Assembly (NCBI GenBank): GCA_041678665.1 | Contig: JBAYNU010000001.1 | Span: forward strand, 80,996 to 144,995 | Source: Candidatus Magasanikiibacteriota bacterium | GTDB taxonomy: Bacteria > Patescibacteriota > Patescibacteriia > Magasanikbacterales > GWA2-37-8 | Length of the DNA stretch: 64,000 nucleotides | Reading direction: 5' to 3' | Shown: piece by piece, positions 3,068 through 52,495 of the stretch | How positions within the stretch are numbered: position 1 is the stretch's first letter | How the letters are laid out: each line of letters opens with the position of its first letter | The notes under the pieces: model-generated | Databases searched by the model: none | The model's input: the letters and a program-made list of their open reading frames with translations, nothing else | Told to the model about the DNA's origin: nothing | Position numbers and translations under genes: made by a program

Positions 3068-3142
3068 TGTCATTCTGAGCGAAGCGAAGAATCCCTTCCA
3101 TTCACAAATCAAGAGATCCTTCGGCTATGCCTCAGGATGACA
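3068..3142. repeat. TGTCAT-terminal palindromic repeat element, type I arms (infC-rpmI spacer)
   Basis: Left arm TGTCATTCTGAGCGAAGCGAAGAATCCC. Right arm GATCCTTCGGCTATGCCTCAGGATGACA. The arms are imperfect inverse complements around a ~25-nt spacer. Confidence 0.8.
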
Positions 3143-3153
3143 AAATAATATAT

Positions 3154-3351
3154 ATGTCCAAACTAAAAACCCACAAAGCAATCGCCAAGCGATTCAAAAT
3201 AACCAAGAATGGCAAAATCATCAAACGCACCAATGGTCAAGGGCATTATAATTCTCGGGAAACCGGGAATACCCGCCGCAACAAACGTTCTGATGTGACT
3301 TTTGACAAGAGCATGGGCAAGCACGTTACTCGTCGCCTCCCCAACGCTTAA
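3154..3351 (+). CDS. rpmI: 50S ribosomal protein L35
   Basis: MSKLKTHKAIAKRFKITKNGK... matches L35 (MPKxKTxxGAAKRF). I take the start at the ATG at 3154 rather than the ORF-track start at 3127. Confidence 0.85.
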   Translation: MSKLKTHKAIAKRFKITKNGKIIKRTNGQGHYNSRETGNTRRNKRSDVTFDKSMGKHVTRRLPNA

Positions 3352-3401
3352 TTTATTTACAATCCTGATACCTAAAACCTATCAGCTATAAGCTAATTTA
3401 T

Positions 3402-3746
3402 ATGACTCGTATCAAAGGTGGTTTACTGCACGCCAAACGCCGCCGCGGCATTCTCAAACATACCAAGGGTTACCGCTGGGGCCGCAAGAGCAAAATTAAA
3501 GTGGCCAAAGTGGCTAAAATGAAAGCCGGCCAACACGCTTTCCGCGATCGCCGCAACAAAAAACGCACCATGCGCGGACTTTGGAATATCCGCATCAATG
3601 CCGGCGCGCGCAAACTAGGTTTATCTTACAGCCAACTGATGAACAAATTAAAGAAAGCCAATATTGCTATTGATCGCAAAGTGCTCGCAGTTCTCGCCGC
3701 CGAACATCCGACTGTATTTGCCAAAGTAATAGAAATGGCTAAGTAA
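3402..3746 (+). CDS. rplT: 50S ribosomal protein L20
   Basis: 114 aa. MTRIKGG...KRRRxILKxxKGYRWGRK...FRDRRNKKRxxRxLWIxRINAxAR is the L20 signature. Confidence 0.9.
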   Translation: MTRIKGGLLHAKRRRGILKHTKGYRWGRKSKIKVAKVAKMKAGQHAFRDRRNKKRTMRGLWNIRINAGARKLGLSYSQLMNKLKKANIAIDRKVLAVLAAEHPTVFAKVIEMAK

Positions 3747-3760
3747 TTTTAGGCCCCACC

Positions 3761-3850
3761 TGTCATTCCGACCGAGCGCAGCGAGCGGAGGAATCCCTTA
3801 GCGCATTGCCTGTCATCCTGAGCGAAGCGAAGGATCCCTTCCACTGTGGA
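3761..3850. repeat. Two tandem TGTCAT-type repeat arms
   Basis: TGTCATTCCGACCGAGCGCAGCGAGCGGAGGAATCCC then TGTCATCCTGAGCGAAGCGAAGGATCCCTTCC, in the same orientation. Confidence 0.75.
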
Positions 3851-3869
3851 TAAACCCACGCCCCCACAA

Positions 3870-49386: not shown

Positions 49387-49390
49387 ATCT

Positions 49391-50485
49391 TTACTTTAAA
49401 AACCAACGCCTAATCCCCTTCCAATACATTCGCCGCGAAGCCAAAATACTCCGGCGCGCGCTTCTTAAATCAGACCAATGCGTGATAATCTCTAGCCAAC
49501 CCCACAATACAACGCGAGGGTTAGTTAAAAGCAAATAACCACACTTTTTTAGCTCGTACCAAAATATCAACGGCCAATCCCAAAAAATATTTTGCCAATA
49601 CTCATTTTTAAAAAGCGTGCGCAAATGATTTTTATAAGAATGATAACGCACAAAATCGGATTGTTTAACTTTGTTTTTTAAAGCCGCCCAATCGCCCATT
49701 TCTTTGGGTCCGGCGCCGGTGCGATTATGATAAGCCACGGCGTCCAAAATCACATATGACATATAACCGGCATTACGCAAGCGATATGCCAAATCCAAAT
49801 CTTCTTTATAAGAATGGTAGGTCGGATCAAACAAATTATCACCCGACAATAAAATTTTATCGGTAATGGTCTTGCGATACATGGGTAAAGCGCCGGATAC
49901 ACCAAACACTTCACAGACGCGCTTATCGTATAATTCGCGCACATTGGAATTGACGCTGTCTTTGGTCCATTCTTCGCGCGTCAACCATTCCACTGCGCGG
50001 CGATTACGAAATAATCGAATTCCAATAGCGTCAATTTGGGAAGTAAATCCAATTTGAGTCACTTTGGCCATCTCCGAACCGGCTTGAATAGCGGTCGCGA
50101 CTTTTCCAAAATCCCAGCGCATCAAACGCGGAGCTACGGCGGCAGTATCAATATGTTTGTCCAAAAAATTTATCATTTTTTCCAAAACATCCGGCATTAA
50201 ATACATGTCCGCGTTTTGTAATAAAAATAAAGGAGTCTTCGTCTGTAAATATGCCTGATTATGCCCCAAAGAAAAACCGACATTTTCTTTATTTTGAATA
50301 ATACGATACTCAAAACCACTGCCGGCCAGTTCACGCTTGATAATCTCTACCGAATTGTCAACCGAAGCATTATCCACCACGATCATTTCCCAATCCTTAA
50401 AAGTTTGATTCTTAAGCGACGACAACAAAAATGGCAGATACTGACTGCTGTTATTTATAACTAAATTAATTGATAATTTTGCCAT
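49391..50485 (-). CDS. Glycosyltransferase family 2
   Basis: IVVDNASVDNS, NVGFSLGHN, GT-A fold. Confidence 0.75.
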   Translation of the reverse strand: MAKLSINLVINNSSQYLPFLLSSLKNQTFKDWEMIVVDNASVDNSVEIIKRELAGSGFEYRIIQNKENVGFSLGHNQAYLQTKTPLFLLQNADMYLMPDVLEKMINFLDKHIDTAAVAPRLMRWDFGKVATAIQAGSEMAKVTQIGFTSQIDAIGIRLFRNRRAVEWLTREEWTKDSVNSNVRELYDKRVCEVFGVSGALPMYRKTITDKILLSGDNLFDPTYHSYKEDLDLAYRLRNAGYMSYVILDAVAYHNRTGAGPKEMGDWAALKNKVKQSDFVRYHSYKNHLRTLFKNEYWQNIFWDWPLIFWYELKKCGYLLLTNPRVVLWGWLEIITHWSDLRSARRSILASRRMYWKGIRRWFLK

Positions 50486-50486
50486 A

Positions 50487-51338
50487 TTATTTGAAAAAAA
50501 ACTCGCTAATATCGGTCAAAAGCACGCCTACCGGCCGAAACAAACTAATCCACATCCACTTATACCATGGCTCCCATTTCTTAAAATACTTTACCATACT
50601 AGCAGTAAACCAGCGCTGTTTCAAGCCCGAGGGGAGACGCTTAAAATTTTGTCCAACATAATCTACGCAACTCGCTGTCGGAGTATACCAAACTTCGTAA
50701 CCATGCCGATACGCCTCACGGCACAGATCCACATCTTCAAACCAAATAAAATACCTAGGGTCAAATCCAAAACCCAATTTTTGTATAAGTTCCTGGCGCA
50801 CCAACATAAATGACCCTCTTACCGAGTCCACTTTTTGCTCGCACTGAGGATCGAAATCCACAAATAAATAACGCTTAATCAATCCTGGAAAAAAATGCGG
50901 TAATTTTAATAAAATAATAATTTGATCAATAATTCCCGGCCAATGCCGCGGACTAGCAGATGCCTTAAAATTATTCTGCTCATCAGTTAGCTTACAACTT
51001 AAAATACCTACCTGTGACCGAACACGTAACCAATCAATTAAAATTTTTAACGAATCCGGACGTAAACGCATGTCTGGATTCAAAAACAAAACAAAATCCC
51101 CCTGCGCCAACTGAACGGCGCTATTATTGGCCGCGGCAAAACCAATATTTTTACCATTTTCCACCATTTTTACTGCTGGAAAAAGCATCTTAATCTCCGC
51201 TACTGACCCGTCAACAGAACCATTATCGGAAATTATTTGTTCGTAATTTAAACCAGTACAGCCATTTTCCATGGTAGCTAATTGACCCAAAATTTGTTCA
51301 CGATCATTGGTGTTAACTGTAATGACACTCAAATCCAT
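50487..51338 (-). CDS. Glycosyltransferase family 2
   Basis: IISDNGSVDGS, NIGFAAANN, GT-A fold. Confidence 0.75.
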   Translation of the reverse strand: MDLSVITVNTNDREQILGQLATMENGCTGLNYEQIISDNGSVDGSVAEIKMLFPAVKMVENGKNIGFAAANNSAVQLAQGDFVLFLNPDMRLRPDSLKILIDWLRVRSQVGILSCKLTDEQNNFKASASPRHWPGIIDQIIILLKLPHFFPGLIKRYLFVDFDPQCEQKVDSVRGSFMLVRQELIQKLGFGFDPRYFIWFEDVDLCREAYRHGYEVWYTPTASCVDYVGQNFKRLPSGLKQRWFTASMVKYFKKWEPWYKWMWISLFRPVGVLLTDISEFFFK

Positions 51339-51342
51339 AATT

Positions 51343-52416
51343 TTATCCTTTTAGCTGCTCTTTAAAATAATCCACGTATGGAATAGTGGTAGGGTCAATT
51401 CCTTCAAGCATAGCCGAATAAAAACTCAAATAACTGGAAAGCGTTAATAATTCACAGACTTGTGACAATTTACTTTGGCTCTCGCACTGATAAGAAAAAA
51501 ATTTAATATCATTTTTCTTTAAAATTTCTTTGGTCACGACAAAACGTTTCTGAACACGCGTGTCATACAATTTGGATTCCAAAAACACAAAGGCTAAATC
51601 ATTCTTATTACTCTTAGGATACATCATGCCTTCCAAAAGATGGTGATTGAGTTCGGGAATGGCAAAATATCCGGCGAATCGTTTGGCAGTCTCATTCATC
51701 TGATTGGCAGCTACGTGGGCGCTGTGTAATAAATGTTCCGAAGACACAAACCAAACAGTTTTGTCATATAAATCATTAGCTAATTTCTTGGCAAAATTAG
51801 CCTCTCCAATCACCGTGGTGCCAAATTCAAAACTAAATTTTTTAATAACTTCGACCGCTCTGCCCAGCTCCGGCTCGCTAATTTTGATCAAACCGGCTTT
51901 GGATAATAAAATCAAACTGCCAAAAACAGAATAGCCCAATCCCATCCGCGGCGAACGACAGGGATTGTTGTTGGTGGTATAAATAAAAGCCGGAAAGCTA
52001 TTTTTCAACGCCCAATCAGTCAAGGCGCCACCGCTGGAAATAGTGACAATCTTTGCTTGCCGCTTTTTGGCTTCCTCTACAGCGCTTAACACTTCTTCGG
52101 TGTTGCCAGAATAACTGGAGGCAATTACCAGCGTATTTTTAGTAACTAAATCGCCTACATGATAATTATTAACTATTTCCAAAGGCACCGGTAATTCACG
52201 GTCAAACGCGGACTTAACCAACAACATGCCCAGGGTTGAACCACCCATACCCAACAAAACTACATTGCTAATTTTTTTATACCCCGCCGGCAATTTAAAT
52301 TTCTCTCCCAGCCCCCACACTTCTTTTACCTGCTCACCCAAAAGTTGAATGCTTCCCAGCATGTTTTTGCTGTCTAATTTTTTGATTTGTTGGATGTCGT
52401 CTAAAATACTTGGCAT
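51343..52416 (-). CDS. SIS-domain bifunctional phosphoglucose/phosphomannose isomerase-like protein
   Basis: Two SIS-like halves (LLGMGGSTLG, IASSYSGNTEE). Size and layout resemble archaeal-type PGI/PMI. Confidence 0.6.
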   Translation of the reverse strand: MPSILDDIQQIKKLDSKNMLGSIQLLGEQVKEVWGLGEKFKLPAGYKKISNVVLLGMGGSTLGMLLVKSAFDRELPVPLEIVNNYHVGDLVTKNTLVIASSYSGNTEEVLSAVEEAKKRQAKIVTISSGGALTDWALKNSFPAFIYTTNNNPCRSPRMGLGYSVFGSLILLSKAGLIKISEPELGRAVEVIKKFSFEFGTTVIGEANFAKKLANDLYDKTVWFVSSEHLLHSAHVAANQMNETAKRFAGYFAIPELNHHLLEGMMYPKSNKNDLAFVFLESKLYDTRVQKRFVVTKEILKKNDIKFFSYQCESQSKLSQVCELLTLSSYLSFYSAMLEGIDPTTIPYVDYFKEQLKG

Positions 52417-52426
52417 AATTTTAATA

Positions 52427-52495
52427 TGTCATTCCCGCGAAAGCGGGAATCTAAAGATTATCTTAAAGGGATTCTCCGCTTCACTCAGAATGACA
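52427..52495. repeat. TGTCAT-type repeat, hybrid (type II left arm, type I right arm), overlapping the 3' end of the rfbD-like gene
   Basis: TGTCATTCCCGCGAAAGCGGGAATC ... GGGATTCTCCGCTTCACTCAGAATGACA. The right arm encodes the C-terminal ...RCHSE-stop of ORF 52481..53320. Confidence 0.8.

Follow-up and report, generated by a model that had tools for sequence, protein, structure and literature searches.

A 64-kb stretch of metagenomic DNA from Candidatus Magasanikbacteria (Patescibacteria), hereafter the window, carries a dispersed family of short palindromic repeats that run from TGTCAT to ATGACA, which raises the question of what these repeats are and what could have spread them. The window has a GC content of 41% and belongs to a contig of 149.6 kb. 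The original prediction, made from the letters, had been unable to assign the repeats to a described family. We found that they do belong to one: the window repeats are members of the superfamily of repetitive extragenic palindromes (REPs) tagged with CGTC or TGTC (PMC3733652), the same class as the NTS of Neisseria and the wider "Ssn-related motif" (SRM; PMC11893778). Our best explanation, which we hold to be probable, is that the hairpin arms of these repeats are of the NTS/SRM class, and that the gene-less dimers formed by them are non-autonomous and served by a trans-acting Ssn nuclease encoded elsewhere in the genome.

Hairpin arms and dimers in the window

By searching for the 8-mer TGTCATYC, we counted 18 occurrences in the window, compared with 2.9 expected, and none of 100 shuffled sequences reached 18. 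A structural definition of an arm ([CT]GTC, a 5-nt stem whose first base is A, 3-60 nt of loop, the perfectly complementary half of the stem, and C) returned the same 18 arms plus four AT-rich extras, the chance expectation being about 3.0 in Markov resamples. These arms fall into 10 loci and form seven head-to-head dimers and four single arms. All ten loci listed in the original prediction are present where it had placed them, with one correction, namely that the arm given as 7090-7152 begins at 7085. A profile search of the window with nhmmer found no additional, degenerate or relic arm copies, and a scan at the Rfam gathering thresholds returned the tmRNA and tRNAs only, leaving the arms without an Rfam match. 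The spread of the arms is uneven, with 12 of the 18 located between 3 and 13.4 kb. Nor are the copies confined to the window: a 10-kb extension of the contig at each end (78 kb covered together with the window) held two more arms (locus L205, 243-319) and no ssn gene, and a 26-nt arm core recurs in many other genomes, as described below.

When placed in a common register, all 18 arms read TGTC, AT[TC]C[TC], a loop, [AG]G[AG]AT, C and a tail. The TGTC tag is invariant, every arm has a perfect stem of at least 5 bp, and a C directly follows the stem in 18/18 arms; this 3' C is part of the structural definition, and the arms had first been located by the 5' 8-mer alone. The alignment also recovers the two arm types that had been proposed, the variable internal modules and the mixing of both types in one element. 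Type II arms (n = 5) have 8-bp stems ATYCCSNN closed by 4-nt loops (GAAA, GCAA or AAAA), as in TGTC-ATTCCCGC-GAAA-GCGGGAAT-C. Type I arms (n = 13) keep the first 5 bp, after which GA...GA typically encloses a mini-hairpin; their loops span 11-58 nt, and some of the arms are more than 50 nt long. The shortest type I loop is GA-GCGAAGC-GA, and its GCGAAGC core is d(GCGAAGC), a DNA mini-hairpin of unusual stability. Longer type I loops contain extra modules, and the loop module of the arm at 7085-7152 is 88% identical to that of the arm at 39582-39628. We also observed a nested mini-palindrome, CATGCCTACCGGCAGGCAGGC, within the loop of 7085-7152. The same module recurs in P0242, a 77%-identical M16 peptidase from a different assembly, where it forms part of the repeat insert and reads HAYRQAGG. 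GCCTGCC..GGCAGGC-like modules are present as well in arm loops of the unrelated loci L100, L177 and L202.

The arms are combined in several ways. Two type I arms face each other at 3068-3142 (3068-3093 on the plus strand with an ATTCT stem, 3115-3142 on the minus strand with ATCCT; -13.2 kcal/mol, z = -3.05) and at 12628-12702 (12628-12655, plus; 12677-12702, minus; z = -5.3). Long-loop type I arms make up the dimers at 11714-11843 (11714-11750, plus; 11803-11843, minus; -34 kcal/mol, z = -5.2) and at 39517-39628 (39517-39562, plus; 39582-39628, minus). Both arms are of type II at 13351-13417, with 8-bp stems and GAAA loops, and at 38998-39064 (-25 kcal/mol, z = -5.8), and the dimer at 52427-52495 is mixed, with a type II arm at 52427-52451 (plus) and a type I arm at 52470-52495 (minus). 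The TGTCATYC...GRATGACA boundaries hold for all seven dimers. The single arms are of type I. Those at 3761-3795 (plus, 20-nt loop) and 3811-3836 (plus, TGTCATCCTGAGCGAAGCGAAGGATC) stand in tandem and co-oriented and were delimited by the structural search; the one at 4019-4044 (plus) has a conserved tail to about 4058 and is 95% complementary to 12662-12702; and the arm at 7085-7152 (minus) has a 58-nt loop with nested modules.

Are these arms maintained as hairpins, or merely as the two ends of a palindrome? First, the stems covary. Position 3 of the stem switches between T-A and C-G in 8 arms and position 5 in 7 arms, with zero broken pairs; the covariation score of 0.40, compared with 0.16 for shuffled alignments, was matched by none of 500 shuffles, and it collapsed when the register was slid. 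Second, the two arms of a dimer differ at stem positions 3 or 5 in six of the seven dimers, which are thus heterodimers. Since arms of the same dimer are unlike at covarying positions, it is the hairpin within each arm that is maintained, and not a perfect long palindrome. Upon folding as single-stranded DNA (ssDNA), type II arms are strong on their own (z = -3.9 to -4.5), and complete dimers form a single long hairpin (z = -3 to -5.8). The "double hairpin" by which the elements had been described thus needs qualifying, since type II arms are strong hairpins by themselves, type I arms are weak ones, and a complete dimer folds as one.

Whole dimers recur at distant sites, spacers included. The region 3060-3148 is 89% complementary to 12622-12710 over 89 nt, and 13351-13418 is 74% identical to 38998-39065 over 68 nt, so that the dimer behaves as a copied unit. 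We looked for target-site duplications (TSDs), a check proposed with the original prediction, and found no consistent flanking direct repeat at any of the seven dimers. The label "MITE/REP-like" (MITE, miniature inverted-repeat transposable element) therefore survives in part: the elements are dispersed, paired inverted arms of the REP/REPIN kind, and the term MITE in its classical sense of terminal inverted repeats with TSDs is unfitting because there are none. If the elements were classical MITEs, they would be deletion derivatives of a DDE-type insertion sequence (IS) with TGTCAT...ATGACA as its terminal inverted repeats, and the terminal symmetry, the small size and the dispersed distribution do agree with such an origin. 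However, in addition to the lack of TSDs, single arms exist alone, each arm is itself a covarying hairpin, and our searches of the window, the contig flanks and some 200 related loci brought up no DDE transposase, which makes this origin extremely unlikely.

Two other arrangements of the arms were observed in the loci that we fetched from other genomes. Tandem arrays of 5' half-arms, each unit being a spacer of about 9 nt plus [CT]GTCATYCNG..., have a period of 19-24 nt and run for 2 to about 18 units with one full arm last (L004 3797-4470, minus; L022 351-420; L062 2851-2920, minus; L070 1784-1850; L113 3666-3720; L042 5330-5390). There are 46 such half-arm junctions in 1.86 Mb of fetched loci and none in the window, and the arrays look like a footprint of stuttering or template switching at the hairpin. 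In Acidobacteriota and Saccharimonadales loci (L005, L007, L026, L041, L045, L052, L083 and L095), dimers are nested in an outer inverted repeat, GCTGCGGAAAAA(N ~10)[dimer](N ~10)TTTTTCCGCAGC, which suggests a larger composite element.

Family identity and the Ssn nuclease of other genomes

The CGTC-tagged REPs, described by Di Nocera, De Gregorio and Rocco in 2013 as families CGTC-1 to CGTC-4, carry an unpaired tetranucleotide tag with the variants TGTC and CCTC, the CGTC being "changed to TGTC in many repeats" (PMC3733652). Their stems measure 8-9 bp and open with two A-T pairs (positions 1 and 2), the loops have 4-5 nt, and the tails are short; the repeats occur chiefly as head-to-head dimers, often heterodimers, beside stop codons and within open reading frames (ORFs), and include dRS3 of Neisseria as well as the Rickettsia palindromic elements (RPE) RPE-4 and RPE-6 (PMC3733652). 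Chenal et al. (Nat Commun 2025; PMC11893778) named the Neisseria version NTS (consensus CGTCATTCCCGCGMAVGCGGGAATCYRG) and the wider class SRM, that is, hairpin-forming inverted repeats of about 20-50 nt that reach hundreds per genome in some hosts. In that study, SsnA is a 94-aa single-domain GIY-YIG protein (cd10448) that binds the hairpin only as ssDNA, does not bind RNA, and cuts ssDNA a few nucleotides 5' of the motif. The GTC before the palindrome controls cleavage, the C just after it controls binding and is the most critical nucleotide, and ssn genes typically have a motif on both sides (PMC11893778).

The features that are invariant in 18/18 window arms, namely TGTC, the A-T/T-A start of the stem and the 3' C, are those that matter for SsnA. 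Moreover, the type II arms at 38998 and 52427 agree with the NTS consensus at 26/28 positions. With the published SRM search pattern, HGTCWYN(0-2)YYVSBRHN(0-5)WNVSBRGN(0-2)RNCYNB, both arms of the dimer at 38998-39064 were matched in the window, compared with 0.07 matches expected. The other type II arms miss the pattern by one or two positions, and the loops of type I arms are too long for it. Because the pattern misses the arm type that is commonest here, genome-wide SRM counts that rely on it may understate the family. A literature search by sequence words did not find the type I core, and short words gave primer noise only. One incidental match was a primer, ATGTCATTCCCACTTCCGTGGGAATGACAT, for the 3' untranslated region of rickA in Rickettsia parkeri (PMC3356282), which contains a TGTCATTCCC...GGGAATGACA hairpin; it is a single perfect hairpin, both strands of which read TGTCATTCCC..., and hence a symmetric variant of the tagged motif.

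Among GTDB species representatives, the exact 26-nt core of type I arms, TGTCATYCTGAGCGRAGCGAAGRATC, is present in at least 120 stretches, which come from at least 12 phyla. Its carriers include the isolates Mucilaginibacter and Calothrix PCC 7716, and most matches are the same head-to-head dimers. At two of these loci, L111 and L008, an ORF of 93-109 aa with a GIY-YIG domain lies exactly between two inverted type I arms, the order at L111 being arm, 14 nt, ATG...TAA, 15 nt, arm. When the 2,555 ORFs of 120 arm-bearing loci were clustered all against all, this two-member GIY-YIG cluster was the only small family directly adjoining the arms.

The association also holds in the opposite direction. 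With similarity to the Ssn protein as the sole criterion, we collected 80 metagenome loci, of which 77 were usable, and scored an arm only if it lay within 120 nt of the gene in the correct orientation. Arms were found upstream of 60/77 Ssn genes, downstream of 56/77, and on both sides, facing inward, at 47/77, whereas random placements in the same loci gave 2.5% upstream, 3.0% downstream and 0.11% for both. The stem classes of the arms vary among Ssn loci (ATTCT/ATCCT, ATTGC, ACCCT and others), and Ssn identity is 63.3% within an arm stem class compared with 58.8% between classes, a difference reached by none of 2000 permutations. In the Ssn homologues, Y7, Y18 and E65 are invariant, and their spacing equals that of the catalytic residues in SsnA (94 aa), namely Y6, Y17 and E64. 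The putative assignment of the arm-flanked proteins to the Ssn family rests on their size, single GIY-YIG domain, residue spacing and flanking architecture. NCBIfam holds no named family for the Ssn homologue, and its only sequence match in the PDB is a weak one to the UPF0213 entry 1ZG2. In viral contigs, arms were found in 70 stretches and an Ssn relative in only one of them, so that phages are not the apparent main carrier. Together, these data place the arms in the NTS/SRM class, as hairpins of the ssDNA type with a fixed orientation and covarying stems, and show the same arm types on either side of Ssn genes elsewhere.

As the original prediction had remarked, the window itself encodes no mobilising enzyme: we found no transposase or nuclease gene in it, and a regular expression for the GIY-YIG motif had no match in its six-frame translation. 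Therefore, any such enzyme acts in trans. The partner that had been suggested, an IS200/IS605 or other Y1 HUH enzyme, is not the one we found between inverted arms, which is the GIY-YIG Ssn of about 93 aa. Could the dimers nevertheless be REPINs moved by a REP-associated tyrosine transposase (RAYT) of the Y1/HUH, IS200/IS605-like type? The layout is the same, with inverted hairpin pairs, a short unpaired tag, no TSD and a logic of the ssDNA type. However, the tag is TGTC and not GTAG, and the CGTC REPs have no associated transposase, no tyrosine transposase having been seen between such repeats in any species examined (PMC3733652). In addition, the ORFs of the 120 arm-bearing loci contained no recurrent transposase-like family, this clustering having been made with no dedicated Y1 search by hidden Markov model profile, and arms adjoin 61-78% of the genes that were retrieved through GIY-YIG similarity. 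We therefore consider a tyrosine transposase very unlikely as the mover of these dimers.

Gene context and in-frame copies

Seven of the ten loci are 1-15 nt away from the stop codon of an upstream co-directional gene, in very short spacers. The dimer at 3068-3142 occupies the spacer between infC and rpmI, the arm at 3761-3795 lies 15 nt 3' of the rplT stop, and the arm at 7085-7152 starts 1 nt past the stop of a ppdK-like gene (7154-10105, minus). The gene tpiA (11852-12619) has an element on each side, as had been noted: 11714-11843 is placed 8 nt after the tpiA stop and abuts the start of a GT4 gene (PF00953) with a gap of 7 nt, and 12628-12702 separates tpiA from an M16 peptidase gene, following the M16 stop by 4 nt and preceding the start of tpiA by 8 nt. 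The mixed dimer at 52427-52495 lies 10 nt 5' of the start of a PGI-like gene and, in agreement with the claim that a copy supplies a stop codon, provides the final four codons (CHSE) and the stop of an rfbD-like gene (52481-53320, minus), which ends ...CHSE* within the arm. Two gene calls are affected by the arms. The start of rpmI was called at 3127, which falls within the right-hand arm of the dimer at 3068-3142; the ATG at 3155 (MSKLKTHK...) is more plausible. A 91-aa "gene" at 3749-4024 (minus), with no Pfam hit, covers three arms and is built from the repeat.

The proximity to stop codons could suggest that the family is maintained for a role at the RNA level, the spacer hairpins acting as terminators, attenuators or mRNA stabilisers. 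Type II arms are stable GNRA-like hairpins, and many REPs have been argued to be transcribed (PMC3733652). However, the GNRA loop that a dimer shows on one strand is replaced by its complement on the opposite strand, three of the elements are in-frame parts of ORFs, and the arms have neither an Rfam match nor a T-run after them. Moreover, a role in RNA gives no reason for the conserved unpaired tag or for the 3' C, both of which match the determinants of SsnA, a protein that does not bind RNA (PMC11893778). A family maintained for its RNA is thus improbable. RNA effects of the spacer copies, on termination or stability, are plausible as a consequence of their position, but secondary at most since they leave the conserved tag, the orientation rules and the intragenic copies unexplained.

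The other three loci confirm that copies also lie inside ORFs, since they are wholly intragenic and in frame. One element is in the M16 peptidase gene (12707-14038, minus) and two are in rlmN (38864-40057, minus). They measure 67, 67 and 112 nt, each length being 1 mod 3, so that for an element of length L the inserted unit must have been L+2 or L-1, and all are translated in the TGT-CAT frame: 13351-13417 encodes CHPDENRDQRLNRADPHFHGDD in the M16 peptidase, and 38998-39064 and 39517-39628 encode CHPRESGDPRNDMADSRLRGND and CHPERNEPKANGVEGSDKQRNLDSSTALAFARSAQND, respectively, in RlmN. In an alignment of 120 RlmN homologues, most proteins are about 345 aa long and have neither insert. The same two RlmN loops hold other repeat-derived peptides in many lineages of Patescibacteria, including VIPAKAGI..SRFRGND (the type II form), CHSERSEESL..ARDDN and CHCEERS..LAMT (ATTGC-type). 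Among M16 orthologues, P0242 (77% identical) has an insert related to this one, and P0243 (74%) and P0244 (70%) have none. The rlmN and M16 patterns indicate lineage-specific gain and tolerance over the long term, and this presence and absence in orthologues supports the mobility of the repeats only indirectly. In the RlmN alignment (P0001-P0120; blocks near 39517-39628 and 38998-39064), the inserts may reflect repeated independent insertions at permissive sites, or a target preference.

Should the arms rather be seen as part of a domesticated host system? Ssn would then cut incoming or exposed ssDNA at the arms and thereby limit recombination or transformation, and the number of copies would be under selection and not set by transposition. 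The clustering of the arms between 3 and 13.4 kb would be in line with this, and the window encodes a T2SSE/PilB-type ATPase, DNA-uptake machinery being common in Patescibacteria. In N. meningitidis, SsnA and the NTS cause about 5-fold lower transformation and less recombination of incoming DNA that carries the motif (PMC11893778). However, the elements that lie in frame within rlmN and the M16 gene, like the arm that serves as a stop codon, resemble tolerated parasitism and not functional placement, and independent insertions recur at the same permissive RlmN loops across lineages. We regard a host function as the basis of the copy number as possible, albeit doubtful. It would not conflict with our best explanation if taken as what the same system turned into later.

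The window contains other repeats as well. A separate AT-rich family, with units like TTAAATTCCAAATTCAAAATAACAAATA, is found at 353-415 and 1286-1348, and also at 1266-1372 and 1856-1937. Its 63-nt arms, which are 84% complementary, bracket a 266-aa ORF (418-1218, minus) with no Pfam hit, and more TTAAATTCCAAATTCAAAATAACAAATA-like copies lie on either side of smpB, beside the tmRNA gene. Intergenic runs of AAAACATA/TAAAACAT with an 8-nt period occur at 19926-19973 and 34436-34483, the latter with an inverted partner at 34491-34533; they are just upstream of divergent or adjacent genes, and the second site is a near-palindrome. Finally, ARAGORN called a tRNA-Asn with the unusual anticodon ATT at 34263-34339 (minus), which is below the Rfam gathering threshold and probably a false positive.

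Proposed mechanism and comparison with known systems

According to our best explanation, an arm would be an oriented recognition hairpin in ssDNA, made of the unpaired TGTC, the A-T/T-A stem start, the loop and the invariant 3' C, and the head-to-head layout would present one correctly oriented site per DNA strand, at one boundary of the element. The cognate enzyme would be a single-domain GIY-YIG Ssn of about 93 aa, expected elsewhere in the genome and typically between two arms. It would bind only the single-stranded hairpin, as may be exposed by replication, repair or DNA uptake, and would nick a few nucleotides 5' of the tag. Nicking of each strand, followed by repair or template switching, would copy the dimers, which would spread whole into operon spacers and, length and frame permitting, into tolerant loops of housekeeping proteins. 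The gene-less dimers would then be the non-autonomous kin of the arm-ssn-arm cassette, as REPINs are to REPtrons. We infer that an Ssn encoded in this genome would recognise both arm types and would drive the copying, either directly or via nicking plus repair or template switching.

Several points weigh against this explanation. First, tblastn with Ssn revealed no ssn homologue in the window and contig flanks (78 kb). Second, the published SRM pattern matches only 2 of the 18 arms, type I arms folded alone as ssDNA are weak when nearest-neighbour energies are used (z about -0.4 to -1.5, some unfolded), and the cutting of type I arms by Ssn is a prediction of our analysis. Third, shared taxonomy may contribute to the higher Ssn identity within an arm class. 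Fourth, SRM/CGTC repeats have never been shown to transpose, and Chenal et al. go no further than to note an IS-like architecture (PMC11893778). Moreover, it is just as conceivable that the dimers came first and that Ssn, instead of spreading them, is encoded by a selfish gene with the dimers as its target.

A bolder extension of the same explanation would be that the arm-ssn-arm cassettes are autonomous mobile elements moving via ssDNA by means of their GIY-YIG nuclease, with the window dimers as non-autonomous copies, the type I arm as the most widely shared one, and the essential proteins of Patescibacteria as routinely remodelled by their in-frame insertion. No strand-transfer activity is known for a GIY-YIG nuclease of this kind, and GIY-YIG-driven movement through ssDNA is not known for any prokaryotic transposon. 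We put this extension forward tentatively, and rather expect it to be wrong. If true, it would amount to a new transposition chemistry, the identical 26-nt core in at least 12 phyla would imply ongoing transfer across phyla, and RlmN would be a recurrent insertion target.

With the assignment to the NTS/SRM class, a repeat family that had been unplaced gains a name and a likely partner enzyme. Ssn/SRM arms prove to be dense in a small genome of the candidate phyla radiation (CPR), whereas most of what is known about the system comes from Neisseria and other Pseudomonadati. Also, the annotation of CPR genomes has to reckon with in-frame copies such as those of rlmN and the M16 gene, and with ORF calls built from arms.

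How do the window repeats compare with known systems? Palindromic repeats in frame inside protein-coding genes are shared with the RPE, which Ogata et al. in 2000 reportedly found in frame in essential genes, adding 20-40 residues in tolerated loops. In contrast to the repeats described here, RPE-1 is longer and unrelated in sequence, only RPE-4 and RPE-6 are of the CGTC class, and the host in our case is a CPR bacterium (free-living or episymbiotic). The REPIN/REP-RAYT system (REPtron; Bertels and Rainey 2011, Nunvar 2010) resembles the window repeats in that an inverted hairpin doublet is the replicating unit, TSDs are absent, one enzyme gene lies between the same hairpins, and the hairpin is recognised as ssDNA. 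However, its tag is GTAG and its enzyme a Y1 HUH transposase, whereas here the tag is TGTC in 18/18 arms and the enzyme a GIY-YIG nuclease.

The closest relatives are the two descriptions of the class itself. Type II arms are like CGTC-1 REPs in their tag, 8-bp stem starting with A-T pairs, 4-nt loop, tail, head-to-head dimers and intragenic copies, and, as is typical of CGTC REPs, 14 of the 18 window arms stand in the seven head-to-head dimers, of which six are heterodimers. The window repeats differ in that their type I arms have interrupted stems and long expandable loops, in the tail, which is CCA in CGTC REPs and CCT or TGC in the window arms, and in the host, Patescibacteria not being among the five phyla listed (PMC3733652). 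With the NTS/SRM, the window arms share the oriented hairpin with a (C/T)GTC tag 5' and a C directly 3', and the arm-ssn-arm layout is found for the same arm types. In contrast, the host of the window repeats is a patescibacterium, 13 of the 18 arms are of type I and thus outside the published SRM pattern, and 3 of the 10 loci are fully intragenic and in frame, whereas in N. meningitidis genes contain 2% of the NTS copies. Thus, relative to both descriptions (PMC3733652, PMC11893778), the host group, the extended-loop type I architecture and the high share of in-frame intragenic copies are new.

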